From the NCBI GenBank assembly GCA_934141145.1, contig CAKPCA010000003.1, positions 7,748 to 71,747 on the forward strand: a DNA stretch of 64,000 bases. Reading direction: 5' to 3'. The notes under the pieces were generated by a model, which was not told the origin of the DNA, made no database searches, and worked only from the letters and a program-made list of their open reading frames with translations. This document shows, one piece after another, positions 9,033 to 57,454 of the stretch. The position numbers and the translations under genes were made by a program. The first letter of the stretch is position 1; each line of letters begins with the position of its first letter. Origin of the DNA: an uncultured Bacilli bacterium (GTDB lineage: Bacteria; Bacillota_I; Bacilli_A; RF39; UBA660).

Positions 9033-10205
9033 ATGAAGAAAAAAGGATTTACATTAATAGAATTATTAGCAGTAATAGTAATCTTAGCAATAATAACAGT
9101 AATAGCAGTACCAAAAATACTGAATGTAATAGAAAAGTCAAAAGAAAGTAGTGCGGAAAGTAGTATAAAACTTGTAAAAGATGCAATAAAAACACAAATA
9201 ACCGCAGGAGATGCACTAAATGAATCTAACTTTATAAAAAATAATGATGGTTGTTATTTATTTGATTTTGATGATCAAAGTACAGCAAATTCAAAAGAAT
9301 TAAAACTAAAAAATAAAGATAAAATAAGTGGAAGTATAACTTATTGTAATGGAACATTTAAAGATGATACATTAAAATTTGATGGTACAGAAATATCAAA
9401 AGACGATAATAACAATAAAATAATATGTAAAAGAGCAACAACACTTCATACAGAAGAATGTACACAGACAGATACAACATATTCTTGTTCAGGAGCTGGA
9501 TATACAACTAGTGGTTCAAAAGGAACAACTACAATAACATATGGTAACTTAGGAACAAAAGGAACACTTACTTCAGGGGATGCATTTGATTGTGATGTAA
9601 ATGGAGATGGAACATACGATTCAACAACAGAAAGATTTTATTATGTAACAGATATGGATAATAATACTGCAGTATTAATTTATTATAATAATGTAAGTGC
9701 AGGTAGTCCAAGTAATAGTGAGGTATATGCATATGATAGTTCAGAAGAAAACTTTCATGGACCAAGAACAGCAATAGAGCAGCTTCCTACAACTAGTCAA
9801 TGGAAAAATGTAAGTTTAAAAAATAGTACAAGAGCAATATTAAATGAGAATGCAGGTAATACAACAACAGGAGGAATATTGCCAAGTAACTTTAGTTATT
9901 CTGGATATGCAGCAAGATTACTTACAATAAATGATATTAGGAAGACTACTAATAATGGAAATATACCGACTAAACAGGTGGGAGAATTAGATGATTTTAA
10001 TTATTTATTAGAAAATACGAAGTATTCAAATCCTGATGTAGGAAATTATGGGTATTGGCTTGAAACTCCATATTTTGATAATTCAACCGATGCATGGTCA
10101 TTAAGTGGCGATTCCAGTCATATTTATTATACTATTGTTTCAAATGAGGTTTATCGTGGTGTTCGTCCGGCAATAGAAGTGTCTAAAGTAAATATTTTAT
10201 ATTAA
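9033..10205 (+). CDS. type IV pilin-like protein (prepilin N-methylation site) with a large Thr/Gly-rich C-terminal domain
   Basis: class III signal KKGFTLIELLAVIVILAII; 390 aa; no assembly genes adjacent. Confidence 0.8.
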   Translation: MKKKGFTLIELLAVIVILAIITVIAVPKILNVIEKSKESSAESSIKLVKDAIKTQITAGDALNESNFIKNNDGCYLFDFDDQSTANSKELKLKNKDKISGSITYCNGTFKDDTLKFDGTEISKDDNNNKIICKRATTLHTEECTQTDTTYSCSGAGYTTSGSKGTTTITYGNLGTKGTLTSGDAFDCDVNGDGTYDSTTERFYYVTDMDNNTAVLIYYNNVSAGSPSNSEVYAYDSSEENFHGPRTAIEQLPTTSQWKNVSLKNSTRAILNENAGNTTTGGILPSNFSYSGYAARLLTINDIRKTTNNGNIPTKQVGELDDFNYLLENTKYSNPDVGNYGYWLETPYFDNSTDAWSLSGDSSHIYYTIVSNEVYRGVRPAIEVSKVNILY

Positions 10206-10283: not shown

Positions 10284-12014
10284 ATGTTAGGAAAAATAAT
10301 AGCAATTGAGGGGAATTTGGCAGTTATAAAATTATCTATTGATTTAAGCAATAAAACTGGATTATTAAATATGCATGTTGCATTTGATTCAGTAGGATCA
10401 ACTATAATTGGTGAAATAGTTTCATTAAGTTTAACAGAAGCAAAAATATTATTACTTGGTGAAATAATAAATAATAATTTTGTGTCTGGTGTTAATAAAA
10501 AACCATCATTTTCAAGTACAGTTAGAATAATAAATAGAAATGAACTTGATTTAATAATTGGAAATTCAAATGGTGAACATTATGTTAATTTTGGAAGATT
10601 ACCACTTTATTCAGGATATCCATTAAATATAGATCCAAATAAGTTTTTTTCAGAACACTTTTGTATAGTAGGTAATTCTGGTAGTGGTAAAAGTTCTTCA
10701 GTCGCAAGAATATTTCAAAATTTATTTTTAAATAATACGCCAAAGACTAATATTTTTATATTTGATGTTTTTGGTGAATATCATACAGCGTTAAAAGGTA
10801 TAAATAATATTTCATATAAATCTTATACAACGGATAAAGAAAGTGAAGAAACTAATTTAGTACAAATACCAATATGGTTACTTGATGCGGATGATATGGC
10901 ACTTTTATTAGAAGCAGAAAGTTATGTACAAATACCTATAATAGAAAAAATGCTTAGAATAGTAACTATATATTCTATGGATGAAGAACAAAGAGATAAA
11001 CATATAAATGATATAATAGCAAGAGCTGTCTTAGAAATACTATATAGTGGTAAACCAGCTAATCAATTAAGAGACCAAATAATGGCAATCTTCTCAATGT
11101 TTAATACTAAAACATTGAATTTAGAAACAGAAGTTAGAGTTCCTGGATGGACTAGAACATTAAGACAATGTTTGATTCTTGATAAAGATGGTAAAATAGC
11201 AGATATAGTACTTGTTTCTAATTTCTTTAAGAAATTTATAAATAATGATACAGAATTAAATCCAGGTCATGGTAAATTATATTATACATTAGAAAATTTA
11301 TATGATGCTTTAGAACTTGCATTTATTTCTGAAGGAATATTAAAAAGTGACGCAATATATGAGAAAATTAATGTTTTAAGAGTTAGATTAAAATCTATAA
11401 TAAATAGTGATTATGGTAATTATTATAGAGTAGACAATTATATTTCTAAAGAAGATTATGTAAAATCTTTAAATGAAGATGGTAAATATAATATAGTTAA
11501 CTTTAATATAAATAATATTACTGATAGACAAGCTAAAGTTATGATAAAAATATATTCTAAAATGTTATTTGAATATAATGCGAGATTAGAAGATAGAGCT
11601 TCATATCCAGTACATATATTTATAGAAGAAGCACATAGATATATACAAAGAGATAGAGATATTGATTTGATTGGATATAATATATTTGAAAAAATTGCAA
11701 AAGAAGGAAGAAAATATGGTGTTATTTTAGGATTAATAACACAAAGACCTTCAGAACTTAGTGATACTACACTTTCACAATGTTCAAATTATTTAATTCT
11801 AAGAATTATAAATCCTAAAGATCTTGATTATATAAAGAATGTTGTTGCTAATATGAGTGATGAATTAGTCGCTAAAATAAAGAGTCTTCAACCAGGATAT
11901 ACTTTGATGGTTGGTAGCGCATTTAAAATACCTATAATAACTAAATTTGATATGCCAAATCCAGCCCCATATTCTAAAAATGTTGATATAAATAATACTT
12001 GGTACAAAGAATAA
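10284..12014 (+). CDS. HerA-like (DUF87) HAS-barrel ATPase
   Basis: N-terminal HAS-barrel-like beta region; Walker A GNSGSGKSS; Walker B HIFIEEAH; GLITQRPSEL motif typical of the HerA/FtsK clade. Confidence 0.7.
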   Translation: MLGKIIAIEGNLAVIKLSIDLSNKTGLLNMHVAFDSVGSTIIGEIVSLSLTEAKILLLGEIINNNFVSGVNKKPSFSSTVRIINRNELDLIIGNSNGEHYVNFGRLPLYSGYPLNIDPNKFFSEHFCIVGNSGSGKSSSVARIFQNLFLNNTPKTNIFIFDVFGEYHTALKGINNISYKSYTTDKESEETNLVQIPIWLLDADDMALLLEAESYVQIPIIEKMLRIVTIYSMDEEQRDKHINDIIARAVLEILYSGKPANQLRDQIMAIFSMFNTKTLNLETEVRVPGWTRTLRQCLILDKDGKIADIVLVSNFFKKFINNDTELNPGHGKLYYTLENLYDALELAFISEGILKSDAIYEKINVLRVRLKSIINSDYGNYYRVDNYISKEDYVKSLNEDGKYNIVNFNINNITDRQAKVMIKIYSKMLFEYNARLEDRASYPVHIFIEEAHRYIQRDRDIDLIGYNIFEKIAKEGRKYGVILGLITQRPSELSDTTLSQCSNYLILRIINPKDLDYIKNVVANMSDELVAKIKSLQPGYTLMVGSAFKIPIITKFDMPNPAPYSKNVDINNTWYKE

Positions 12015-12061: not shown

Positions 12062-13147
12062 ATGTCTAATATAAAAAGTGCATATATACATATTCCTTTT
12101 TGCAAAAGTATTTGCTCATATTGTGATTTTAGTAAAATGTATTATAATTCTAATTTTGTTAATTCATATTTAAATGCATTAAGTAATGAAATAAAAGAAG
12201 ATTACAAAGGTGAAATATTAGATACTATTTATATTGGTGGAGGAACACCATCCGCATTAAGTATAGATGAATTAAAAAACTTATTTTTAATAACAAATAC
12301 TTTAAATTTAAGTGATAACTATGAATTTACTATAGAATGTAATATAGAAGATATAACTAAAGAAAAACTAGAATTATTTAAAAATAACAAAGTTAATAGA
12401 ATTAGTATAGGGGTACAAAGTTTTAATAACAAGATATTAAAATACTTGAATAGAAAGTATGATAGTGAAATTATATTAAAAAAAATAAATTTAGTAAAAA
12501 AATATTTTGATAATATAAATATTGATCTAATATATGCGGTTAATAATGAAACTATTGATGATTTAAAAAAAGATTTAAAAATGTTTTTAAGTATTGATAT
12601 ACCACATATATCTTGTTATTCATTAATAATTGAAAAAAATACCATTTTATATAATAAAAATGAAGAATATATAAGTGAAGATTTAGATAGATTAATGTAT
12701 GATACAATAGAAAAGACATTAAGTTCTAATTATTGTCATTATGAAATAAGTAATTATGCTAAAAAAGGATTTGAATCAAAACATAATTTATGTTACTGGA
12801 ATAACAAGGAATATTATGGATTTGGTTTATCCGCCGCATCTTTTATAGAAAATAAAAGAATTAATAATACAAGAAATTTAAAAAAATATATAGAATTTAA
12901 TAGAGATAAGGAAGAAGAAATACTTACTAAAGAAGATAAGATAAGATATGAATTAATACTTGGTTTTAGAAAGATAGAAGGTATTAACAAAAAAGAATTT
13001 TATAATAAATATAATATAGATATTCATAATTTGTATAATATTAATGAACTATTAAAAAAAGGTTATTTAAGTGAAAATGATAAATATATTTTTATACCAA
13101 AGGAGTATATTTATGTTTCAAATGATATTTTGATTAATTTTATATAA
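12062..13147 (+). CDS. hemW: radical SAM heme chaperone HemW (HemN-like)
   Basis: CxxxCxxC (CKSICSYCDF) plus GGGTPS; position before hrcA as in Bacillus. Confidence 0.85.
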   Translation: MSNIKSAYIHIPFCKSICSYCDFSKMYYNSNFVNSYLNALSNEIKEDYKGEILDTIYIGGGTPSALSIDELKNLFLITNTLNLSDNYEFTIECNIEDITKEKLELFKNNKVNRISIGVQSFNNKILKYLNRKYDSEIILKKINLVKKYFDNINIDLIYAVNNETIDDLKKDLKMFLSIDIPHISCYSLIIEKNTILYNKNEEYISEDLDRLMYDTIEKTLSSNYCHYEISNYAKKGFESKHNLCYWNNKEYYGFGLSAASFIENKRINNTRNLKKYIEFNRDKEEEILTKEDKIRYELILGFRKIEGINKKEFYNKYNIDIHNLYNINELLKKGYLSENDKYIFIPKEYIYVSNDILINFI

Positions 13148-13209
13148 TGTATATTAAAATATTAAAAAAAGTAGTATAATATATATAAAGAATAGAAGGA
13201 GGATTATTA

Positions 13210-13512
13210 ATGGAAGAATTAGATTTTGAACCTATAGATGAAGTTCTTGAAAATAATGAAGAGATAGAAACTTTAGATATTGATGAAAATCCTTCTAATA
13301 CAGAAGAAGATATGATAAAAATAGATAGACTATTTAATGTTAATGATGAAGAAGATAAGAAGGAAGAACAACTTAATAAAGAAAAAGAAACAAAAAAAGA
13401 TAAAAAAATAGAGAAAATACAACTAGGTTTAATAATATTTTTAATAGTAAGTGCGACTCTTATATATTTTTTTGGTTATAATTTAGTAGAGCCATTTATA
13501 AAATTAGAATAA
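13210..13512 (+). CDS. small acidic protein with a C-terminal TM helix
   Basis: D/E-rich N-terminus; single TM LGLIIFLIVSATLIYFF; AGGAGG RBS. Confidence 0.5.
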   Translation: MEELDFEPIDEVLENNEEIETLDIDENPSNTEEDMIKIDRLFNVNDEEDKKEEQLNKEKETKKDKKIEKIQLGLIIFLIVSATLIYFFGYNLVEPFIKLE

Positions 13513-13513
13513 A

Positions 13514-13542
13514 TTGACAAATAAAATAAAAAAAAGTATAAT
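13514..13542 (+). promoter_or_regulatory. sigma-A promoter
   Basis: TTGACA, 17 nt, TATAAT; followed at 13536-13575 by a 7-bp AT-rich hairpin plus T-run. Confidence 0.45.
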
Positions 13543-13581
13543 CTACGTGAAAAGGTTATACTTTTTTTAGGGGGAATATAT

Positions 13582-15222
13582 ATGATAAACAAGGAAAAAG
13601 TATTAAATGAAGTTATAAAAAAATATGAAAAATTTGGAATAACAAAAGAAGAAATACAAAAGTATTTAGTTGATGAGACAAGTACATATAAAAATGATGC
13701 AGATGCAATTAAAAAAATATCAATATCTCTTGATAACTCTATAGTTCAAAATGTCGCAAACTTAAGCACTATAAGAACTTCATACAATTATTTAAAAAAA
13801 ATAATTAAATCAGATGGTATTAGCTTATCAAGAATTAGTAAATTAGCAAGTAATGATAAAGTAAGTATTGATAGCAAGCTTGATGAAATATATAATCAAA
13901 TAATAAATACAATAAAAGAGAATTATGATAGTAGTAAATTATTAAGTCAAAATATAATAGAAAATATGAAACAATTTTTACAAAAAGATGTAGTTACAAG
14001 TATAGATAAAAATGAACAATTTGATATTACTTTTTTAAAGAGATTAAATGGTGTCAGTATTGAATCTATTTCAAAAGTAACAGATATTCCAGTATCAACA
14101 CTTTATAGTTATATTAATTTGAATAAAAAAGTTCCTGGATATAATCTTGCCCAAATTCTTGAATATTTTAATGTAAAAAATTATGATGAATTAAAAGAAT
14201 TATCTGAACAAAAGAAACTTGTTACAGAAGTTTTAAAAAACAACCCTGAAGTAGAAACAAATACTAATAAATTTGATATTTCTATACTAAAAGCTTATTT
14301 ATTAAAAAATAATGTAATGCTTGTTAAATTACAAATAGTATTATCAATGAACAAAGCAAGATTAATAAAATGTCTTGCAGGTGAAGAACTAGTTACGGAT
14401 GATATCATGAATGAAATATATAAATTATTTGAAGTAAATAGTTATGATGAACTTGTAACAAAAATAAGAGAAAATACTTTAAAAATTCCAGCGTGTTTAA
14501 AACCAGAGCGTTATGATATATTATTTTTTAACAAATTTATAGCTTTAAATAATATTGATAAGATAAAACTAGCTGATACATTAGGTATAAATAAGATGGT
14601 GTTAAGTGATTATTTAAATGGTAAAAAAGCCGCACCAACAAAATTAGTAGATAAGCTAATTGATATATTTGGGTTAATCAATTTTTATGATTTAGAAGTT
14701 AATGTGAAAAAAAATACTTTAAATGTTCCAACCTATTTATTAAAAACAGTAAAAGAAAATATAACTGTAAAAAATATTAGTACCCAAGAAAAAGATAATA
14801 AAGAAATAATTAAGAATAATATTTCTGAAAAAGTAAAGGAAACAGAAGAATCTAAAAAAGAAGTAAAAGATGCTAAATCAGAAGTAGAAAATGAACAAGA
14901 AACACAAATAAATGAAATTGCTAGTAGTTCTACCAGTAATACCCACACTAATGATACGATTCCAAATATTCTAAATATGATAAAGATAGATGAACTATTA
15001 AAATTAATCGGAAAAGAAAATATATCAAACTCAGATTATATGATTGTATTACTATTATTTGGAGGAGTAGAAGATCAATACTTTAAGATATCTTCAATAT
15101 CAAAATTCCTTCATATAAATGAAGAATACATTAATAATATTTATACTAAATGTCTAGAATTATATAAAAATAAATTAAATGATGAATTAAAAAAAGAAAA
15201 AACTATGATTTTAGAAAAATAA
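13582..15222 (+). CDS. hypothetical regulator: N-domain, three tandem XRE-type HTH repeats, K/E-rich linker and a sigma-70 region-4-like C-terminal HTH
   Basis: three ~70-aa repeats (FDITFLKRLNGVSIESISKVTDIP.., FDISILKAY.., YDILFFNKF..); C-terminus DYMIVLLLFGGVEDQYFKISSISKFLHINEEYINNIY resembles sigma region 4. Confidence 0.55.
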   Translation: MINKEKVLNEVIKKYEKFGITKEEIQKYLVDETSTYKNDADAIKKISISLDNSIVQNVANLSTIRTSYNYLKKIIKSDGISLSRISKLASNDKVSIDSKLDEIYNQIINTIKENYDSSKLLSQNIIENMKQFLQKDVVTSIDKNEQFDITFLKRLNGVSIESISKVTDIPVSTLYSYINLNKKVPGYNLAQILEYFNVKNYDELKELSEQKKLVTEVLKNNPEVETNTNKFDISILKAYLLKNNVMLVKLQIVLSMNKARLIKCLAGEELVTDDIMNEIYKLFEVNSYDELVTKIRENTLKIPACLKPERYDILFFNKFIALNNIDKIKLADTLGINKMVLSDYLNGKKAAPTKLVDKLIDIFGLINFYDLEVNVKKNTLNVPTYLLKTVKENITVKNISTQEKDNKEIIKNNISEKVKETEESKKEVKDAKSEVENEQETQINEIASSSTSNTHTNDTIPNILNMIKIDELLKLIGKENISNSDYMIVLLLFGGVEDQYFKISSISKFLHINEEYINNIYTKCLELYKNKLNDELKKEKTMILEK

Positions 15223-15235
15223 GAAGGTGATTTTT

Positions 15236-16126
15236 ATGGAATTTAATGTAAAGACACATTTAAAAAATAAGTATAAAGATTATAATATACCAGAATCAAT
15301 AATTGATAAAATAGAAAGTGAAGAAATTCAAGGCTATTATGTTGATATATTAATTAGAAAAACTATTCAAATAGAAAATTATATAATTGAACAAATAAAA
15401 AAAGATGATCTTGAAAAAGAATTATTAGTTTTAGAACAACATTCGTCATTAAAAACAATTATAAAATACAATAAAATTTGTTTAAAATTGCTAGATGAAT
15501 TAGCAAACAAAGAAGGTCTTTCTATTGATAAAGTGATAAATAAGCTTTATGAAGATGCATTGGAAAGATCATTAAGTAATTATAATGATAGCAGATTGAT
15601 TAGTGAAAATATTTTGTATAATATGCAAATAATACTGCTTCAAAAATTTGGATATGATGTTTCTTCTATAACTACTAGTTTTAACAAAACTAAAGAAGAA
15701 CAAGTAAAAGAAGAAAAAAATAATACTGAATCAGTTAAAAATGACTTAAAAAGTGATAGAAGTAAAAAAGAAAAAAAGAAAGAAAGAACACTTCAAAAAG
15801 ATATAAATATAGAATTTAATAAAACAACATTTGATGCAGAAGAAGTACCAAATATTAGAAAAATGATAAACTTAGAATATTTATTAAAATTAATTGGTTA
15901 TAAAAATGGTACAAAAACCAAAGATGATGCAATTATATTTTTATTGTTTGGTGGAATAGATGGACAATATTATAAAAATAGCGAAGTCGCAAAGGCTTTA
16001 AATATAAGTGAAGAGTATGTAAATGAAGTATATCTTAGATGTTTAGAAGAATACAAAAATTCTTTAGAAAATACTTACAAAAATGATATTAAAAATAAAA
16101 AATTAGGTTTATCAAAAAGCTCTTAA
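15236..16126 (+). CDS. paralogue of the 13582 protein without the HTH repeats (N-domain plus sigma region-4-like C-terminus)
   Basis: shared N-terminal motif (SRLISENILYNM vs SKLLSQNIIENM) and C-terminus (LLKLIG..IIFLLFGGIDGQYYKNSEVAKALNISEEYVNEVY). Confidence 0.55.
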   Translation: MEFNVKTHLKNKYKDYNIPESIIDKIESEEIQGYYVDILIRKTIQIENYIIEQIKKDDLEKELLVLEQHSSLKTIIKYNKICLKLLDELANKEGLSIDKVINKLYEDALERSLSNYNDSRLISENILYNMQIILLQKFGYDVSSITTSFNKTKEEQVKEEKNNTESVKNDLKSDRSKKEKKKERTLQKDINIEFNKTTFDAEEVPNIRKMINLEYLLKLIGYKNGTKTKDDAIIFLLFGGIDGQYYKNSEVAKALNISEEYVNEVYLRCLEEYKNSLENTYKNDIKNKKLGLSKSS

Positions 16127-16202
16127 AAATATAAATAAGAGCTTTTCTTATTGCAAAAATTTATGTCACATAGTATACTTAAAATAAGAATAGGTGAAGA
16201 GT

Positions 16203-16589
16203 ATGAATAAATTTATAGTAAAAATTTTTATGTTGATGACATTCTTATTAATATTAACGGGATGTGCGACTAATAATAATAAAAATATTGATGAAAAACA
16301 AAATAATGATAACGATATGCTTATAAATCAAAATTATGATGGACTAGAATTTGTCAATGCAAAAATTAGTAATAGTGAAATAGTGACTGTTGTAATAAAC
16401 AATACAGGATATACTTATGAGGGCTCTAAATTTAAAATGAAAATTATGGATGAATCAGGAAATACAATAAAAGAAATTATTGATAAAGTAAGTGAAAAAG
16501 TAGAAAATGGTACAACAAAAACAATAAAAACAAAAGTAAATATAGATATATCAAAAGCGAGTAGTATTGAATATAGTATTATTAAGTAG
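16203..16589 (+). CDS. lipoprotein
   Basis: lipobox LILTGC. Confidence 0.6.
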   Translation: MNKFIVKIFMLMTFLLILTGCATNNNKNIDEKQNNDNDMLINQNYDGLEFVNAKISNSEIVTVVINNTGYTYEGSKFKMKIMDESGNTIKEIIDKVSEKVENGTTKTIKTKVNIDISKASSIEYSIIK

Positions 16590-16610
16590 ATGAATGTCTA
16601 CTTTTTATAT
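16586..16610 (+). terminator. terminator before the hrcA operon
   Basis: agtaga/tctact hairpin plus T-run. Confidence 0.5.
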
Positions 16611-16613
16611 TAT

Positions 16614-16640
16614 TTAGCACTCATCTATTGACATTGCTAA
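16614..16640 (+). promoter_or_regulatory. CIRCE operator (HrcA site), imperfect right arm
   Basis: TTAGCACTC-N9-cATTGCTAA; overlapped by promoter TTGACA(16628), 16 nt, TATAAT(16650). Confidence 0.7.
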
Positions 16641-16686
16641 AATAAGTGTTATAATTAGATTGTACACTTGGATTAGAGGTGAATAT

Positions 16687-17676
16687 ATGCTTACAGAAAG
16701 ACAAAGTTCTATACTAAAAATTATAGTTGAAGAGTATATAAAAGTACCAAAGCCAGTTGGTTCAAAATCTATTTGTGATTCATTAAATGTATCTAGTGCG
16801 ACAGTTAGAAATGAAATGGCTAACTTAGAAGATTTAGGATACTTAGAAAAAACACATGTATCATCAGGTAGAGTTCCATCTGAGAAAGGTTATAGATATT
16901 ACGTTGATAACTTAATGAAGCCAAAAGAAATGAGTGGTGAAGATGTATTAAAACTTCAAACAATATTCCAAAATAATTCATTAGTATTAAGTGATGCAAT
17001 AATAAAAAGTTTAGAGATAATATCTGAAATGACTAATTATACAGCAGTTATATTAAAGGATAATGCTTTAGAAAGTAAACTTAAAAAAGTTGAAGCAATC
17101 CCAATTGATGAAAATAATGTAACAGCTATTCTTGTAACAGATAAAGGACATGTTGAAAATAAAATAATTAATATAACAGGTTCTAATCTTGAAGAAGTAA
17201 ATAAAACTGTTGAACTTATTAATAAACTTATTGTTGGTACCCCAATTGATGAAGTTACATCTAAACTTGAATTTGAAATTAAACCAATTATTAATCAATA
17301 TGTAAAACATCATGAAATACTTTATAATGCGTTCTATAATGCATTTAATAATTTTAAAGATAGTGCAGATATGACTATGAGGGGTAAAAGTAATTTACTT
17401 GAACTTGATGAATTTTCATCTGATGCTAGAAAAATTAAAGATTTAGTTAATAAGTTTGATAATGACAATATTGTTTCTAAAATTAAAGAAGATGACTCTG
17501 GTATAAATGTGTACATAGGTAATGAAAACAACATAGATGATGATTTGACAGTAATAAAGACAAAATATAATGTAAATGGTAGAGAGGGAACACTTGCAAT
17601 TCTAGGACCTAAAAGAATGGAATATGATAGAGTTGTAAGTTTACTTGAATACTTAAAAGAAGAGATTGAAAAGTAA
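16687..17676 (+). CDS. hrcA: heat-inducible repressor HrcA
   Basis: MLTERQSSILKIIVEEY winged-helix N-terminus; CIRCE upstream; grpE-dnaK downstream. Confidence 0.9.
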   Translation: MLTERQSSILKIIVEEYIKVPKPVGSKSICDSLNVSSATVRNEMANLEDLGYLEKTHVSSGRVPSEKGYRYYVDNLMKPKEMSGEDVLKLQTIFQNNSLVLSDAIIKSLEIISEMTNYTAVILKDNALESKLKKVEAIPIDENNVTAILVTDKGHVENKIINITGSNLEEVNKTVELINKLIVGTPIDEVTSKLEFEIKPIINQYVKHHEILYNAFYNAFNNFKDSADMTMRGKSNLLELDEFSSDARKIKDLVNKFDNDNIVSKIKEDDSGINVYIGNENNIDDDLTVIKTKYNVNGREGTLAILGPKRMEYDRVVSLLEYLKEEIEK

Positions 17677-17688
17677 GGAGGTTTCTTT

Positions 17689-20060
<2,372 letters not shown>

Positions 20061-41521: not shown

Positions 41522-42802
41522 ATGAAAAAAGGGTTATTTGCAAAGTTAGTTTTATTTGCAATAATAATGATTATATTTCCAAAGAATGTGTATGCATTAA
41601 ATTTTAAAGTAGAAAGATCAGCAGATACTGTAAAACCAGGCGCAGAAGTTACTGTGTATGTAAAAGCAGAAGGTGTAGGAAATGATTCTTTAAAAGAATA
41701 TAATGTATCACTTGCATATGATGGAACAAAACTAGAATATAAAAGTGGTACAAGTGATGTTGCTACTGTAACACAAGGTAATCCAATTGTTGTAAAAAAT
41801 GGAAATGGTACAATAAGTTCAGACACAACAATTGCAACTTTAGTATTTGGAGTAAAAGCAAATTCTAAAGCAGGTGACACTAATTTAACGCTTACAAATT
41901 CTGGACTTAAAACAATAGCAGGTGAAGAAAAAACAGCAACTAATACAAGTTCAATGATAAAGGTTGCAGCTCTTGGTTCAGATGCAACACTAAGTTCATT
42001 AAAAATACCAAATACAACACTAAGTCCAAAATTTGATAAAAATACACTTGAATATACAGCAGACATAAAAGATATTACTGAAATAACTATTAATGCCCAA
42101 GCAACAGATTCAAATGCTAAAATAATGATATCAGATAACTATAAGAGTTTAGTTAAGGGAGAAAATATAGTAAAAATATCAGTAACTGCAGAAAATGGTA
42201 CAGCGACAAAAACATATCAAATTAAAGTAAATTTAACTATGACACCAACAGAGGAAGAAAAAATAAAAGCAAATGCATTACTTAAAAAATTATCTATAGA
42301 AGGATATGATATTGATTTTTCATCTGATCAAAAGAAATATACTTTAACAGTACCATATAAAGAAAAGAAAGTTAAAGTACTTGCAGAAGCAGAAAATGAA
42401 AATGCACCTATAGAAATGGAAGGTACAACTTCTTTAAAAGTAGGTAAAAATATAATAAAAGTATTAGTAACAAGTGAAGATGGTTCTACTAAAGAAACAT
42501 ATACTTTAACCATAACTAGAGAAAAACAAGAGAAAAAAGTTGTACAAACTTGTCCAGATGAAACAAGTACAAGAGAATGGATAGTATTCTCAGTAAGTAT
42601 GCTTTTAACATTTACATTAGGTATTGTACTAGGTTACTTTGTATGTAAAAAAGAAGTTCTTAGAAAAATATTTAAAAAGAAAAATAAAAAAGAACAACCA
42701 GAAGAAATAGATACTCTATCTGATACAATAGAACTTGATGCTAAAAAAGTAAGCGATAAACTAATAGAGGAAAAAGAAGAAGAATTAAAAGAAGATAAAT
42801 AA
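41522..42802 (+). CDS. surface protein: signal peptide, cohesin-like domain, two cadherin-like beta-sandwich domains, C-terminal TM anchor
   Basis: two repeats LSSLKI...TLSPKFDKNTLEYT...VTAENGTATKTYQIKVN; C-terminal TM plus K-rich tail. Confidence 0.6.
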   Translation: MKKGLFAKLVLFAIIMIIFPKNVYALNFKVERSADTVKPGAEVTVYVKAEGVGNDSLKEYNVSLAYDGTKLEYKSGTSDVATVTQGNPIVVKNGNGTISSDTTIATLVFGVKANSKAGDTNLTLTNSGLKTIAGEEKTATNTSSMIKVAALGSDATLSSLKIPNTTLSPKFDKNTLEYTADIKDITEITINAQATDSNAKIMISDNYKSLVKGENIVKISVTAENGTATKTYQIKVNLTMTPTEEEKIKANALLKKLSIEGYDIDFSSDQKKYTLTVPYKEKKVKVLAEAENENAPIEMEGTTSLKVGKNIIKVLVTSEDGSTKETYTLTITREKQEKKVVQTCPDETSTREWIVFSVSMLLTFTLGIVLGYFVCKKEVLRKIFKKKNKKEQPEEIDTLSDTIELDAKKVSDKLIEEKEEELKEDK

Positions 42803-47331: not shown

Positions 47332-47439
47332 AGATATACCTCCTTACAAATATTATATGAAATACTTAAAAAAAAGTTTAAAAATTAAAATATATATGAT
47401 ATAATTTACTATAGAATAGAAGGGCATAGGAGTGAAAAA

Positions 47440-49173
47440 ATGAAGAAAGTATTAAATTTTATAGGAAATTTCTTTTTATTTATAATTTTATTACCACTTA
47501 ATATTTTTAAGTATTTTAATTTATTCTTTTATTATGTTATAAAATTATTATTAAGAGAATCTCCAGAAAAAGCTGAAAAAAGAAAACAAAAAGAAGCAGA
47601 AAGAGAAAAAGAAAAACAAAAAGAAAAAGAAGAAGCAGAAAAATATATTAGAGAAAAAAATAAAGAAGCTAATATGGCTGCTTTAAAAGAAGGACAAAAA
47701 GATGTTCTTACAGAACCTGTAAAAAAAGATAGAAAATTATCTAGAGAAGAACAAAAAGAAGAACATAGAATTGCTAAAGAAAAAATCAGAATAGAAAAGC
47801 AAAGACAAAGAGAAGAAGCAAGAAAAGAAAATAAAAGTTTACTTCGTCAGTTTAGAGAAAGAAATATTTTTGCATTAAATAGACAAAAGAAACTTGATTC
47901 AAAAAGAAAAATATTGACTCTTGATCTTAATTCTGATGATTCAAAAAGAAGTACAGAAAAGATTATATTTAAATATACTGCAAAGAATCCTGCTGGTAAA
48001 ATAGAAAAAGGTACATTTCAGGGATATTCCAAACTAGATGTTCATTCATATTTATTATCAGAAGGTTATGAAGTATATGAGATAAAAGCAGTTGCAAAAG
48101 CTAATATGTTTAATACTGATTTAGGATTAAATAGACCAATAAAAAAATCTTTGTTAGTATTTTATTTAACACAGTTATCTACTTATATAAAAGCGGGTAT
48201 ACCACTTGTTGATTCTATTAAAATATTAACTAATCAATCTAAATCAAAAACGATGCAAACAATATGGAAATCTATTGTATATGAATTAACTATGGGTGCA
48301 TCACTTAGTGAAGCTATGCTTAGATGTGGTAATGTATTTCCTAAATTATTAATAAATATGGTAAAAACTGCTGAAATGACAGGTGATTTAGCAGAAGTTT
48401 TAGATGAACAAGCCGCATATTATAAGTCAGTAGAAAAATCTAGAAAAGAAATGAAAAATGCATTGATGTATCCAATATTTATATTTGCTTTTTCAATAAT
48501 AATAATTACATTTATATTAGTTTATGTTATACCTCAATTTGTTGATATATATGATAGTATAGGTGCAGATTTACCAGGAATTACTGTATTATTAATAAAT
48601 GTTAGTAATTTTGTTACAAAAAATATTTTATGGATAGTAATAGGTGTAATTGCTTTAATTACATTACTTACATTACTTTATAGACATAATGTATCATTTA
48701 AATACAGTGTAGAGTCAATACTTATGCATATGCCTGTAATTAAAGAAATAATAATAGATAATGAAATGACTATGTTTGCAAAAACTTTTGCAACACTTAT
48801 TAATAATAATATATTTATAACTGATAGTATGGATATTTTAAGTAGAATAACAGAAAATGAAGTATATAAAACTATAATTTATGATGCTGTTGAAAGTCTA
48901 GCAAGAGGTGACAACATATCTACATCTTTCTATGATCACTGGGCATTTCCTGACATAGCATATCAAATGATTGTAACAGGTGAAAAAACAGGTCAATTAG
49001 GAACAATGATGGATAAAGTAGGAGATTACTATCATGATGAACATGAAAATGCAATAGCGCAAATTAAAGTATTTATAGAGCCTGTATTAATTATATTCTT
49101 AGCAGTTGGTGTAGGTGGTATATTACTTGCAGTTATATTGCCAATGTTTAGTATGTATAATCAACTTATGTAA
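47440..49173 (+). CDS. pilC: type IV pilus platform protein PilC/GspF with a 165-aa N-terminal TM plus K/E/R-rich extension
   Basis: two GspF repeats; preceded by TM (FIGNFFLFIILLPLNIF) and a charged region; AGGAGTG RBS at the first ATG. Confidence 0.8.
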   Translation: MKKVLNFIGNFFLFIILLPLNIFKYFNLFFYYVIKLLLRESPEKAEKRKQKEAEREKEKQKEKEEAEKYIREKNKEANMAALKEGQKDVLTEPVKKDRKLSREEQKEEHRIAKEKIRIEKQRQREEARKENKSLLRQFRERNIFALNRQKKLDSKRKILTLDLNSDDSKRSTEKIIFKYTAKNPAGKIEKGTFQGYSKLDVHSYLLSEGYEVYEIKAVAKANMFNTDLGLNRPIKKSLLVFYLTQLSTYIKAGIPLVDSIKILTNQSKSKTMQTIWKSIVYELTMGASLSEAMLRCGNVFPKLLINMVKTAEMTGDLAEVLDEQAAYYKSVEKSRKEMKNALMYPIFIFAFSIIIITFILVYVIPQFVDIYDSIGADLPGITVLLINVSNFVTKNILWIVIGVIALITLLTLLYRHNVSFKYSVESILMHMPVIKEIIIDNEMTMFAKTFATLINNNIFITDSMDILSRITENEVYKTIIYDAVESLARGDNISTSFYDHWAFPDIAYQMIVTGEKTGQLGTMMDKVGDYYHDEHENAIAQIKVFIEPVLIIFLAVGVGGILLAVILPMFSMYNQLM

Positions 49174-49184
49174 AGGAGTAAAAA

Positions 49185-49994
49185 ATGGAAACAATAATAT
49201 ATAGTATAATGATATTTATAATTGGAATTTGTTTTGGATCATTTTTTAATGTAGTAGGATATAGACTTCCAAATAATATGTCTATATCCTTCCCACCATC
49301 TCATTGTACTAGTTGTAATCATAAATTAGGTGTATTTGAATTAATTCCAATATTATCTTATATATTTCAAGGTGGTAAATGTAAACATTGTAAAACAAAA
49401 ATATCATGCTTTTATCCAATATTTGAATTTTTAACAGGTGTACTTTTTGTAATATGTTATTTAGTATTTAAAGATGAATATCCTGAAATATTAAATATTA
49501 TATATGCAATGTTATTTATATCATCATTAATAATTATTATAATAAGTGATATAAAATACATGATTATTCCAGACGAAGTATTAATATTCTTTGGTGTAAT
49601 ACTTGTAATTTTAAAAATGATTATTATATATAAAATAAATCCTAACAATACATTCTTAGATATGGGATATGAGTTTGTATTTATATTGCTAGATGGAATA
49701 GTAATGTTTGTATTTATGTATCTAGTTAGACTACTTGGTAATGCTTTGTTTAAAAAAGATTCTATGGGTGGTGGAGACATAAAGATGATGACATTTGTGT
49801 CATTAATAATTGGATGGAAATTAGCTATTGTAGTAGTGTTTTTAGCGTCATTTTTAGCTCTTCCAATATCAATAATAAATATGTATAAGAATAAAGAACA
49901 TGTTCTTGCATTTGGACCATATTTAGCTATAGCTACCATGATATTATTTTTGTGTAAAATAGATTTTAGTATGATACTTGAATTTATTTCGTAA
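49185..49994 (+). CDS. pilD: prepilin peptidase/N-methyltransferase PilD (A24)
   Basis: CTSCNH..CKHCK zinc finger; D..GGGD motifs. Confidence 0.85.
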   Translation: METIIYSIMIFIIGICFGSFFNVVGYRLPNNMSISFPPSHCTSCNHKLGVFELIPILSYIFQGGKCKHCKTKISCFYPIFEFLTGVLFVICYLVFKDEYPEILNIIYAMLFISSLIIIIISDIKYMIIPDEVLIFFGVILVILKMIIIYKINPNNTFLDMGYEFVFILLDGIVMFVFMYLVRLLGNALFKKDSMGGGDIKMMTFVSLIIGWKLAIVVVFLASFLALPISIINMYKNKEHVLAFGPYLAIATMILFLCKIDFSMILEFIS

Positions 49995-50020
49995 ATAATT
50001 AAATAGAAAGGATTAAAAAT

Positions 50021-50821
50021 ATGAACAAAAAAGGTTTTGCAACAAGTACAATAGTATTTGCATTATTATCAGTATTTTTAATATCAATAAGTATATTATT
50101 AGTAACAATAACAAATACAAGCAAGACAAAAAATACATTAAATGAAAAAGTAGTAAGTAATATAGAATATGGAAGTAATTCATTAAATGATATAGAAAAA
50201 AGATTAGAAGAACTAGAAAATAGTACATTAAAATTAGATAATGTGTATCCAGTTGGAAGTATATATATGAGTAATAATTTAAAAACAGTAGAAGAAGTGC
50301 ATAATGCATTAGGAGGAACATGGGAAAAGTATTCAGAAGGAAGAACAATAATAGGAGATGGAACAACGACAGATGAATCTGGCAATGCATTAGTATATAA
50401 TGCAAATCAAACTGGTGGTAATACTACTCAAATACTTAAAACAGATAATTTACCAAGTCATAATCATTCTTATGTACCTAATGGAAATATAACTTCACTT
50501 TTATCAAATGGTACTACTTCTTCATCAGGTGAACATACACATACATTGTCTACAGTGTTATATAAAAATCCTGATCCTCCACTATCATTTAGTGAGGTAA
50601 TCTTTTATGAATATCCAAGTGGTTATGCCGCAAAAAATTCTGGCCTTGGTTATACTAATACAGCTATTTCAAAATCTGGTAGTCATGAACACACAGTAAC
50701 CGGGACAATAACAAGTACTTTTAAAGGAATTAAATCTGAAACAGAAAGTACAGGTTTAAATAAATCATTTAGCGTGCAAGACCCATACATAGTAACATAT
50801 ATTTATAAAAGAGTTAAATAA
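50021..50821 (+). CDS. pilin-like N-terminus fused to a phage tail-collar (MdpB-like) domain
   Basis: N-terminal KKGFATSTIVFALL hydrophobic segment; YPVGSIYMS, LGGTWEK..GRTIIG and GGNTTQILKTDNLPSHNHS match tail-collar motifs. Confidence 0.6.
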   Translation: MNKKGFATSTIVFALLSVFLISISILLVTITNTSKTKNTLNEKVVSNIEYGSNSLNDIEKRLEELENSTLKLDNVYPVGSIYMSNNLKTVEEVHNALGGTWEKYSEGRTIIGDGTTTDESGNALVYNANQTGGNTTQILKTDNLPSHNHSYVPNGNITSLLSNGTTSSSGEHTHTLSTVLYKNPDPPLSFSEVIFYEYPSGYAAKNSGLGYTNTAISKSGSHEHTVTGTITSTFKGIKSETESTGLNKSFSVQDPYIVTYIYKRVK

Positions 50822-55677: not shown

Positions 55678-56172
55678 ATGATAAATAAACAAAGCATTTG
55701 GCTACTCACTTTATTTAGTTTAATTTTAGTATTAAGTGTATATTATATTACAATGCCATCAGATTTTTTAGAAGCAGCAAATAGTGAAACAAAAAAGAAT
55801 ACAGTAAAAGTAACAGTAACAGAACAAAACGAAACAATAAGTGCACTTAAAGTAGAAAATAATGAAGAAAGAAATAAGAAAATAACAGAACTTCAAACAA
55901 TACTAACAAGTGATAAAGCAACTAGTGAAGAAAAAAACAATGCATATGAAGAATTAAAAGTACTAAATATAATGAAAGGAAAAGAAGAAGAAATAAGTAC
56001 AAAAATAAAAGATGAATATAAAGTAGAGAATTTTGTAAAAATAAAAGATGATCAGGTTAGAGTAGTAGTAATAAAAGATAAACATGATTCTCTTCTTGCA
56101 AATAACATTATGAACTTAGTACAAAAGAATTTTGATTCTAAAATGTATATATCAGTTAAATTTCAAAAATAA
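55678..56172 (+). CDS. membrane-anchored sporulation-type protein (SpoIIIAH-like?)
   Basis: N-terminal TM plus a K/E-rich domain; position after efp where Bacillus carries spoIIIA; homology unverified. Confidence 0.3.
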   Translation: MINKQSIWLLTLFSLILVLSVYYITMPSDFLEAANSETKKNTVKVTVTEQNETISALKVENNEERNKKITELQTILTSDKATSEEKNNAYEELKVLNIMKGKEEEISTKIKDEYKVENFVKIKDDQVRVVVIKDKHDSLLANNIMNLVQKNFDSKMYISVKFQK

Positions 56173-56212
56173 CTTAATAGTTATTTTTTTTATCGCAAAT
56201 TTTAAGTTTTAT

Positions 56213-56220
56213 CATACAAT
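56213..56220 (+). promoter_or_regulatory. mother-cell-type (sigma-E/sigma-K) -10 element CATACAAT upstream of gerE
   Basis: matches CATACA-T / CATA---TA consensus. Confidence 0.35.
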
Positions 56221-56269
56221 AATATGAGTAATTATATATACACCTCTTACTAAGAAAGTGAGGATTAAT

Positions 56270-56476
56270 ATGAGTAAAGGAATATTAACTAAAAGAGAAA
56301 GAGAAGTATTCGAGTTATTAATTAAGAACCAATCTACAAGAGATATAGCAGAAAAACTTAAAATTAGTGAAAAGACTGTGAGAAATCATATATCTAATGT
56401 AATGCAAAAACTTGGCGTTAAAGGTAGAAGTGGTGCTGTAGTAGAATTACTAAAATTAAATGAGATATCTTTATAA
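56270..56476 (+). CDS. gerE: LuxR-type HTH sporulation regulator GerE
   Basis: 68 aa; LTKREREVFELL...STRDIAEKL.ISEKTVRNHISN. Confidence 0.8.
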   Translation: MSKGILTKREREVFELLIKNQSTRDIAEKLKISEKTVRNHISNVMQKLGVKGRSGAVVELLKLNEISL

Positions 56477-56497
56477 AGAGTCTCATTTTTTTTATAA
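56459..56497 (+). terminator. terminator overlapping the gerE stop
   Basis: aatgaga/tctcatt hairpin plus T7. Confidence 0.5.
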
Positions 56498-56527
56498 TTG
56501 TACATATAATTTTGTAGGTGATAATAA

Positions 56528-57454
56528 ATGATAAAGGATTTTTCTGTAAAAAAAATACTAAAATATTCAGCACTACTATTAATTGTCTTTTTATTTTATT
56601 TATTTCCAGAAAAACAAGTAGTACAAAAAAATGAGAGTATATTTAATGAGCAAAATATAAAATATCATGATATATTTTTGATGGATAAAAATGGATATAT
56701 TTCTAAAACAAATATATCTATTAATTCTGTTAAAACTATAAATTTAGTAGAAGAACTAGTAGAAGCTATGGTTATTGATGGTAAATATTCAAGTAAAGTA
56801 CCAAATGGTTTTACTGCAATAATTCCTACAGATACAAAATTAAACTCAAAAAAAATAGAGGAAGATACTGTAGTACTTGATTTTAATTCCAATTTATTAG
56901 ATGTAAAAAGTGAGTATGAAGAAAAAATAATAGAAAGTATTGTATATACTATGACTAGCATAAATAACATCAAAAATGTTAAAATATTAATTGATAATAA
57001 GCCGCTTACAAAACTTCCTAAAACAGGTAAATATATAAATGAAACATTAGATAGGAATTTTGGAATAAATAAAGAATATGATATATCTAATTTGGATGAT
57101 ATTACCAAGGTAACAATATATTATGTAAATAAAAATAATGTAAATCAGACATATTATGTACCTGTTACTAAATATGTAAATACAAATCAAGAAAAGATAA
57201 AAATAATTATTGATGAATTATCAAGCAAAATATCATATGAAAGTAATTTAATGAGTTATTTAAATTATAATGCAAAACTATTAGACTATAGTTTTGATGA
57301 AGATGAAGTAGATCTAAATTTTAATGAATATTTATTTGATAATAAAGAACAGTCAAAAGTATTAGAAGAAGTAATATATAGTATTTCTTATTCAGTTATG
57401 GATAGTTATGGAGTATCAAAAATTAACTTTTTTGTAAATAATAAACAAATTTAG
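56528..57454 (+). CDS. gerM: GerM-like protein (two GerMN domains)
   Basis: N-terminal TM; repeated GerMN-like segments. Confidence 0.55.
   Translation: MIKDFSVKKILKYSALLLIVFLFYLFPEKQVVQKNESIFNEQNIKYHDIFLMDKNGYISKTNISINSVKTINLVEELVEAMVIDGKYSSKVPNGFTAIIPTDTKLNSKKIEEDTVVLDFNSNLLDVKSEYEEKIIESIVYTMTSINNIKNVKILIDNKPLTKLPKTGKYINETLDRNFGINKEYDISNLDDITKVTIYYVNKNNVNQTYYVPVTKYVNTNQEKIKIIIDELSSKISYESNLMSYLNYNAKLLDYSFDEDEVDLNFNEYLFDNKEQSKVLEEVIYSISYSVMDSYGVSKINFFVNNKQI

Follow-up and report, generated by a model that had tools for sequence, protein, structure and literature searches.

A pilin-like carrier without Glu5 bearing a phage tail-fibre tip: a possible filament tip subunit encoded beside pilC and pilD in an uncultured gut Bacilli bacterium

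Introduction

What might a protein that begins like a type IV prepilin and ends like a phage tail fibre do for the cell that encodes it? The question is raised by a locus on contig CAKPCA010000003.1 from an uncultured gut member of the Bacilli, of which a 64-kb stretch (hereafter the window; GC content ~24% throughout, with housekeeping and sporulation genes) was analyzed. Positions 47440-50821 of the window comprise three co-directional open reading frames (ORFs), which an initial annotation had named pilC, pilD and a pilin-like protein fused to a phage domain; all three were confirmed as real ORFs. The third product, here called X, is the subject of this study. A Hadza gut metagenome contig encodes a protein identical to X, and related metagenome-assembled genomes (MAGs), whose loci and proteins are cited here by L and P numbers, carry the labels 'Bacilli bacterium' or 'uncultured Tenericutes'. 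The reading that we favor, with modest confidence, is that X is a PilD-processed, pilin-like carrier that lacks Glu5, is located at a filament tip and acts as an adhesin.

Results

A phage tail-fibre domain in X

The features of X are as follows.

50021-50821, + strand: X, 266 aa, start MNKKGFATSTIV (ORF with a Gp10_C domain)
50021-50110, + strand: residues 1-30, class III-like signal (leader MNKKG, then the 25-residue hydrophobic helix FATSTIVFALLSVFLISISILLVTI; no Glu at +5)
50111-50233, + strand: residues 31-71, helical stalk or short coiled coil (AlphaFold2 helices to residue 49 and at 52-68)
50234-50470, + strand: residues 72-150, conserved N-terminal half of Gp10_C (PF21939; YPVGSIY...W.KY..GRT..G...LPSHNH)
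50471-50755, + strand: residues 151-245, hypervariable HxH-rich insert, the presumed ligand-binding needle/tip (from the 8kec alignment and paralogue divergence)
50756-50821, + strand: residues 246-266, conserved C-terminal strand DPYIVTYIYKRVK closing the domain, and stop (conserved in all paralogues)

The C-terminal part of X had been assigned to the phage tail-collar family on the strength of the motifs PVGSIY, NLPSHNHS, GEHTHTL and GSHEHTV. All of these motifs are present; the family assignment is wrong, as Pfam returns no match to Phage_tail_collar (PF07484) in X even at E ≤ 10, and the Pfam family is instead Gp10_C (PF21939), with 51.6 bits against a cut-off of 27 (E = 2.4e-13) and residues 72-265 aligned to profile positions 2-139 of 139. 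A profile built from 79 X homologues matched, in the PDB, the C-domain of T4 gp10 (2fkk, 1.2e-6) and a long tail fibre (8kec, 5.5e-6), and comparison of X with PHROGs gave 'tail protein' (1.4e-18) together with weaker 'tail fiber', 'tail collar fiber' (1e-4) and 'baseplate wedge' matches. The HxH-rich insert of X aligns with the HxH-rich region of 8kec, and its C-terminal strand with that of T4 gp10 (PYITVYRWIRI). A Foldseek search of the PDB with the AlphaFold2 monomer (mean predicted local distance difference test score, pLDDT, of 63.6) gave nothing significant, the best match being a gp10-like baseplate protein at E = 0.034.

The architecture of the domain is collar-needle-tip-return, as in fibre tips, with the tip part exchanged among paralogues. 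Judged from these profiles, the domain is derived from a phage tail or baseplate protein. HxH motifs in phage fibres bind metal ions along the trimer axis, and by analogy with such fibres X probably forms a homotrimer. Lachnospiraceae prophages carry the same domain at the end of 630-aa fibres. At least 443 matches in viral contigs extend over the Gp10_C domain and leave the KG[FY]A leader uncovered; nearly all start at residue 43 or later.

The leader and helix of X

That X starts like a pilin, with Thr rather than Glu at +5, had been proposed from the outset and is borne out in the sequence. Its leader (MNKKG|FATSTIV) has five residues, is basic and carries Gly at −1, and the helix that follows completes the short-leader arrangement of class III signals: Kyte-Doolittle windows 4-16 exceed 1.6, and AlphaFold2 predicts a single helix over residues 3-49, the length of pilin alpha1. 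The stalk beyond varies in length among paralogues, two of which (P0025 and P0037) have ~45 extra heptad-like residues. The motif NKG[FY]A[ST] is kept across three lineages with otherwise diverged helices; when the 26 distant carriers described below are added to these lineages, Gly at −1 is still invariant, and Phe/Tyr at +1 and Ala at +2 are invariant or nearly so. The Ala at +2, after the Gly of the cleavage site, presumably resembles the G|VAL-type leaders of GspK. There is no plausible signal peptidase I site of the A-x-A type in X of the window lineage (TITNTSKTKN). We infer from the leader that X would be processed by PilD.

Pilins with the same cargo

The most direct link between the tail-fibre domain and pili is found at two related loci (L033:5395-6750 and L016:5464-6654), where single ORFs encode a Glu5 prepilin, a pilin module of ~150 aa, a coiled coil and Gp10_C. 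Their signal, MK(R/K)KG|FTLIELL, scores above the N_methyl cut-off, and both proteins end in PYITVYMYKR. Because a Glu5 prepilin and Gp10_C are joined here in one ORF, the tail-fibre tip is, on the evidence of gene structure, a genuine type IV pilin cargo in related gut Bacilli MAGs.

The N-terminal module of X is itself found with other cargos. A hidden Markov model of its N-terminal 72 residues, searched against 1.84 billion representative proteins at E ≤ 1e-3, placed the module (..NKG[FY]A[ITSV][ST]..) on 178 representative proteins (P0267-P0371; L086:17998-18651). Glu5 was found in none of the 26 hits that were sampled, and no carrier of the module was recognized by the N_methyl model. The cargos on these carriers are modules of adhesin type, unrelated to one another, and comprise ALK_LTK_GRD, Flg_new (Listeria-Bacteroides repeats), the Laminin_G_3 concanavalin A (ConA)-like lectin domain, DUF6273, DUF285/leucine-rich repeats (LRR), F5/8-C discoidin and Gp10_C. 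ALK_LTK_GRD (in L080 and L082) and a DUF6273-like module (at 9033 in the window) occur on Glu5 pilins as well, and one pool of cargos for two types of carrier is as expected for two subunit classes of one system. In L080 and L001, X paralogues lie directly 3' of Glu5 pilin genes.

The window encodes a pilin of the canonical kind.

9033-10205, + strand: canonical Glu5 prepilin, 390 aa, MKKKG|FTLIELL, with a large C-terminal module (PF07963, 30.3 bits against a cut-off of 21.2; weak DUF6273)

This pilin, which the initial annotation had not linked to the X locus, is likely to be a filament subunit of the system to which X belongs. Its N-terminal ~110 aa are fused in L080 to a glycine-rich ALK_LTK_GRD module. 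Its gene stands alone between tig and a gene for a HerA-like DUF87 ATPase (10284-12014, + strand), and the pilin-DUF87 pair recurs in L095.

A hypervariable, dispersed family with poly-G promoters

The dominant features of X, neither of which the initial annotation contained, are its membership of a hypervariable multigene family and the poly-G promoters of that family. Homologues number in the hundreds, almost all from gut metagenomes. Many MAGs hold numerous copies (at least 16 loci in one from rabbit gut), frequently where a contig ends; the window holds no other copy. The identity of paralogues to X is 85-91% over residues 1-55, 40-97% over residues 76-150 and 5-29% over residues 151-245, and the last 21 residues are conserved. 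A diversity-generating retroelement was considered as the source of the hypervariable insert; the annotated neighbors showed no reverse transcriptase, and no dedicated test was made. In sister lineages, copies stand as tandem pairs or triplets between housekeeping and sporulation genes (efp-X-X-spoIIIAH, spoIIP-X-X and yidD-X-X-X-rnc), and because copies are scattered in this way among unrelated genes, the site beside pilD is one of many at which the family is inserted.

Nearly every X paralogue lies 3' of the element cTTGACA-N8-10-G(7-11)-TATACT/TATAAT, ~40-55 nt before the start codon. The related loci, 864 kb in all, hold 65 runs of seven or more G. Every run is on the strand of the gene; 51 stand immediately before X-family genes and one before a Glu5 pilin gene, and most others are cut by contig ends or precede genes for proteins with the same N terminus and another cargo. 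Tracts of G9 and G10 dominate, and the deduced spacer between −35 and −10 is 18-20 nt (mostly 19-20). For two loci, comparison of contigs between samples gives 100% identity over ~1 kb to either side of the tract, the sole difference being G9 or G10; the same locus likewise has G9 or G10 in L092 and L093, and several contigs begin or end inside the tract. By analogy with known systems, slipped-strand mispairing in the promoter spacer could produce phase variation, with ON/OFF switching of single copies.

G-tract examples in related loci: L086:9949-9958, L088:9950-9958, L089:10735-10743, L091:7692-7701, L081:7952-7960 and L080:5392-5398

The 64-kb window has no run of seven or more G or C, and the spacer homopolymer is accordingly missing from X of the window. 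In L081, a second strain, pilD is followed by a copy without a tract (Xa) and then by a copy driven by a poly-G promoter (Xb; region L081:7207-8060). The window sequence (49995-50080) equals Xa upstream of the gene and through codon 10 (30/30 nt), and after codon 10 it is Xb-like (30/30, 56/60, 74/80 and 77/80 nt). This pattern implies a chimera, seemingly formed by recombination between the conserved 5' ends of tandem copies with the loss of one gene and the poly-G promoter.

The pilC-pilD-X unit and the assembly machinery

The remaining features of the unit are listed below.

47377-47405, + strand: candidate promoter of the pilC-pilD-X unit (consensus scan: TTTAAA-17-TATAAT, TG before −10)
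47440-49173, + strand: PilC/GspF-type platform protein, 577 aa (two T2SSF domains, PF00482, 8.5e-54)
47440-47553, + strand: PilC residues 1-38, extra hydrophobic helix, membrane anchor or hairpin (Kyte-Doolittle, AlphaFold2, conservation)
47554-47955, + strand: PilC residues 39-172, K/E/R-rich helical extension, presumably cytoplasmic (composition, AlphaFold2, conservation)
47956-49173, + strand: canonical PilC/GspF platform with two T2SSF domains and three transmembrane helices (PF00482, transmembrane windows, AlphaFold2)
49185-49994, + strand: PilD prepilin peptidase/N-methyltransferase, 269 aa (A24_N_bact PF06750, 1.8e-32; Peptidase_A24 PF01478, 8.7e-14)

Upstream of the unit lie dnaG-sigA-trmK and then divergent yqfQ, and downstream lies gmk. 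The gap between pilD and X is 26 nt and X has an AAAGGA ribosome-binding site, a layout of pilD and X that is repeated in L081; the locus scan found no terminator-like site between 46900 and 51600. The three genes form an apparent operon. Its promoter is a candidate only, because the consensus scan does not rise above chance in DNA of 24% GC (43 sites found against 40.9 expected). The order dnaG-sigA-trmK-yqfQ-pilC-pilD is kept in L081, L082 and L084, and the genes 3' of pilD vary across the clade: a T2SSE ATPase and pilins in L082, sepF-divIVA in L084.

PilD has CxxC motifs at 41 and 66, D122 and GGGD at 195-198, and is apparently an intact, functional prepilin peptidase. In L082, whose PilC is 66% identical, pilD is followed by a gene (12584-13882, − strand) for a 432-aa T2SSE ATPase with a Cys4 motif and a Pro/Gln-rich C-terminal tail; therefore, the lineage does have an assembly ATPase. 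Next to it are genes for a 158-aa Glu5 minor pilin (13998-14474, + strand; NQG|YMLAE) and for a 1072-aa Glu5 modular pilin with an ALK_LTK_GRD module (14485-17703, + strand; NKG|YTLVE), so that Tyr at +1 is found in true pilins of this lineage. From its gene content, the pilus system of the lineage looks minimal.

From residue ~173 onward, PilC aligns end to end with GspF, PilC and HofC models (TIGR02120 GspF, 3.1e-84; PilC NF052607, 1.2e-74), with transmembrane windows at 338-372, 388-418 and 537-574. Its scores fall under every equivalog cut-off (GspF, 283.6 against 424; PilC, 251.8 against 700; ComGB, 147.8 against 240); because all are missed, we assign the protein to the PilC/GspF platform at the level of the family and not of an equivalog. 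The canonical part opens with a beta-beta-alpha-beta unit, FKYTAKNPAGKIEKG, and is preceded by residues 1-172, which bear out the extension described in the initial annotation as a transmembrane helix plus a charged segment, with a length of ~172 aa rather than 165. Kyte-Doolittle windows 2-31 exceed 1.6 and AlphaFold2 places a helix at 2-37; residues 39-170 are 57% K/R/E/D with a net charge of +13, and further helices are predicted at 42-80, 102-141 and 143-158 with low to moderate pLDDT.

The ribosome-binding site reported at the first PilC ATG is indeed good (AGGAG, 7 nt upstream). An internal start, raised at the same time, is disfavored by a check on relatives down to ~60% identity (~575 aa), which keep the length, the hydrophobic helix and the well-conserved core motif EEHRIAKEKIRREKLRQKEEERKE; because the extension is kept together with its hydrophobic helix, the first ATG is taken as the true start. 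In a more distant group (L084:10001-12175, P0204-P0240; 724 aa, ~50% identity), a K/E-rich extension of ~320 aa occurs without the hydrophobic helix, and because of this group the constant feature is the charged spacer and not the anchor. The extension must be cytoplasmic, to judge from its leading into the cytoplasmic N-domain, and a role in non-standard regulation or anchoring, as first suggested, is speculation. The conserved charged extension represents a lineage-specific alteration of the platform, in an assembly machine that seemingly lacks PilM/N/O.

Other features of the window

The lineage, of 24% GC, has a complete complement of sporulation genes: spoIIGA, sigE, spoIIIAH, gerE and a gerM-like gene (at 558-2050 and 55678-57454 in the window), with gpr and spoIIP in relatives (L086, L089 and L092). 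One public MAG of the lineage is labelled 'Tenericutes'. The gene at 41522-42802 (+ strand), upstream of dnaG, encodes a 426-aa protein in which a Cohesin domain occurs with two Cadherin-like domains, and a DUF6512 gene separates it from dnaG; the position of the Cohesin gene is kept in L081, L082 and L094. At 13582-15222 and 15227-16126 (+ strand) lie adjacent paralogues with helix-turn-helix motifs and a common C-terminal block (...LLKLIG.EN...LLLFGG..QY...), for which no clear family was found beyond HTH_3.

Discussion

In the reading that we favor, X would be co-transcribed with pilC and pilD, cut by PilD after Gly5 and, probably as a trimer like phage domains of the gp10/gp12 type, fitted to a type 4 filament at its distal end; without Glu5, a subunit would be able only to cap and not to be capped. 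The filament itself would be built of Glu5 pilins, such as that at 9033-10205, and assembled by the PilC platform, with its charged helical spacer on the cytoplasmic side tethered by the extra hydrophobic helix, together with a PilB-type ATPase encoded outside the window. The hypervariable HxH insert would be the ligand-binding tip, and slipped-strand changes in the G7-G11 tracts of the promoters of other copies would switch single tips on or off, the tract-less, pilD-linked X of the window being a constitutive copy. In the bacterial systems studied, absence of Glu5 marks the capping or tip subunit (PMC10191384); modular pilins are established, and CofB is described as trimeric, with a predicted tip location and additional beta domains carried by a linker (PMC8179133). 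Because X lacks Glu5 and CofB provides a precedent for a trimeric tip pilin, a capping or tip role seems the most economical. The initial annotation had already raised the idea of a pilus tip adhesin: this gains from the Glu5 pilin-Gp10_C fusions of L033 and L016 and from the missing Glu5, which fits a cap, and it loses its footing in PF07484 and in an adjacency to pilD that is limited to one species.

A number of observations weigh against this assignment. In place of Glu5, X has Thr in the window lineage, and its counterpart in the sister lineage has Ile. The proposed check of the N terminus against prepilin models gave no N_methyl match (PF07963/TIGR02532-type; E ≤ 10 in Pfam, E ≤ 0.1 in NCBIfam), and no globular pilin module is recognizable, AlphaFold2 predicting only helices before Gp10_C at the mean pLDDT given above. 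The basic-Gly-hydrophobic pattern alone gives false positives, because SpoIIIAH (55678-56172; L086:11858-12352), a plain membrane anchor, fits a loose prepilin-like pattern with MINKQG|IWLL. Within the X family the whole 5' region is conserved (gene conversion), which accounts for part of the conservation of the leader. A co-variation of Phe/Tyr at +1, and of KK and NNK leaders, between X and the Glu5 pilins of one genome would have to set Tyr-type pilins of L082 beside Tyr-type X genes of L092, from lineages that are only 71-76% identical (RseP, Fmt). Synteny of pilD and X across genera was considered and rejected, the adjacency being confined to the window species (window and L081). As the initial annotation had stated for PilB and PilM/N/O, the assembly genes are incomplete here: no T2SSE ATPase, PilM/N/O or PilT is detectable in the 64-kb window, and of these it is the missing ATPase that counts against the assignment. 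In distant MAGs the Gp10_C domain is exported by ordinary Sec/signal peptidase I signal peptides (...SYVLA|E), so the domain does not need a pilus. For the promoters, differences in poly-G length could partly be errors of homopolymer sequencing or assembly, and the spacers of mostly 19-20 nt would imply an OFF state only by analogy with sigma-70 promoters.

Several of these points would suit a plain bitopic, membrane-anchored surface protein, uncleaved or cut by signal peptidase I, which would display a trimeric coiled-coil stalk and tail-fibre tip outside the membrane and lie beside pilD by accident, the family having entered many intergenic sites. Such a protein would need neither Glu5 nor an N_methyl match; homologues in other MAGs do use ordinary Sec signals, copies are scattered among housekeeping and sporulation genes, SpoIIIAH illustrates the K-x-G-hydrophobic pattern in plain anchors, and in sister lineages a possible S-x-S site follows the helix (NNSSS|LNK). 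We nevertheless consider it unlikely, if the strongest of the rival explanations: Gly−1, Phe/Tyr+1 and Ala+2 are kept despite divergence of the helix and in 26 carriers with unrelated cargos, the cargo set is common to true Glu5 pilins and includes direct Glu5 pilin-Gp10_C fusions, X of the window lineage offers no plausible A-x-A site, and a stalk of 20-45 residues would hardly clear a Gram-positive wall.

Cleavage of X by PilD need not place it in a filament. Archaeal sugar-binding proteins with class III signals form a bindosome, and X could belong to a similar surface assembly or be released by a type II-secretion-like piston of Glu5 pilins; the class III-like leader on many binding-type cargos and the minimal machinery (PilC, PilD and the short T2SSE ATPase of L082, with no PilM/N/O seen) would agree with either. 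There is archaeal precedent, cited in PMC10191384 (ref. 43), yet the Glu5-less pilins of the bacterial systems studied are tip subunits (PMC10191384), and the hydrophobic helix would keep X bound to the membrane or filament, so that we regard this explanation as improbable. Least credible, to the point of near-dismissal, is a leftover prophage tail-fibre gene without a cellular role. The domain belongs to phage tails and baseplates and is very common in viral contigs, but the neighbors of X are housekeeping genes (dnaG, sigA, trmK, gmk and pbp) with no phage genes among them, the leader and hydrophobic helix are uncovered by the viral matches listed, and the ORF is intact, as are dozens of paralogues with a dedicated promoter type and a conserved export signal; a prophage origin of the locus is effectively excluded by gene context.

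If the tip-subunit reading of X is right, it may extend to the whole family. We suggest, tentatively and with less confidence than we attach to the role of X itself, that uncultured low-GC gut Bacilli keep a 'tip library', combinatorial in nature, for their minimal type 4 filaments: Glu5-less carriers consisting only of an alpha1-like helix, encoded by dozens of genes, would bear interchangeable modules (phage tail-fibre tips, lectins, LRR and glycine-rich domains) under poly-G promoters of their own, different cells would display different tips, and the window copy would be the constitutive default. The arrangement would amount to a pilus-based counterpart, in Gram-positive bacteria, of Vlp variation in mycoplasmas or Opa variation in neisseriae, with phage receptor-binding domains put to new use.

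Were X-type proteins PilD substrates, the class III export signal would be broader than current models allow. N_methyl, TIGR02532 and PilFind-type rules need Glu5, and many adhesin-like proteins of gut Bacilli may, if so, now be annotated as 'hypothetical'. Phage receptor-binding domains would have been reused by the host as pilus cargo, and a recognizable phase-variable regulon (TTGACA-N10-Gn-TATACT) would be open to study in metagenomic reads, giving access to surface variation in gut commensals that are not in culture.

Comparison with known systems

The cargo of X is closest to the fibre tips of phage gp10 (2fkk), gp12 and gp37 type, to which it is related by profile homology and by a topology of conserved half, variable HxH-rich insert and conserved closing strand. 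Unlike phage fibres, X has an export signal and a membrane helix in place of a fibre shaft, lies on the chromosome in a housekeeping context, has an N-terminal module that is missing from viral contigs and leaves PF07484 unmatched. Phase variation through repeats in a promoter spacer is known for Mycoplasma hyorhinis vlp (poly-A), Bordetella fim (poly-C) and Haemophilus hif (TA repeats). The promoters of X paralogues resemble these systems in having a homopolymer of polymorphic length between −35 and −10 of variable surface-protein genes, whereas the window copy has no tract.

Among pilins, the nearest counterparts are modular pilins such as Streptococcus sanguinis PilB (von Willebrand A module) and PilC (ConA-like lectin), which share with X a binding module on a carrier with a prepilin leader and a predicted location at the tip (PMC8179133). 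Their cargos overlap with those of X-type carriers in the Laminin_G_3/ConA-like lectin. By the definition of modular pilins (Raynaud et al. 2021), X has the extra module (Gp10_C) and no detected pilin motif or fold, and both are present in L033 and L016, which fit the formal definition. X differs in its carrier, an alpha1-like helix plus stalk with no Glu5, no IPR012902/N_methyl signature and no globular pilin module; in its cargo, a phage tail-fibre tip not being named among the common architectures in the main text of PMC8179133; and in belonging to a multi-copy, hypervariable family under poly-G control. The capping pilins GspK, those of the PilK-PilX class and ComGG resemble X in lacking Glu5 (PMC10191384), but neither they nor the trimeric CofB and TcpB of type IVb systems have sequence homology to X, and they keep the pilin fold, which X does not. 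The open-access literature yielded no prior description of the X family, of gut-Bacilli poly-G promoters or of a pilin-like protein with phage-fibre cargo, which is weak evidence of novelty. Set beside these systems, X appears to be a new type of modular or minor pilin, in which the carrier is cut down to a Glu5-less alpha1 helix, the cargo comes from a phage tail fibre and the family is apparently phase-variable.

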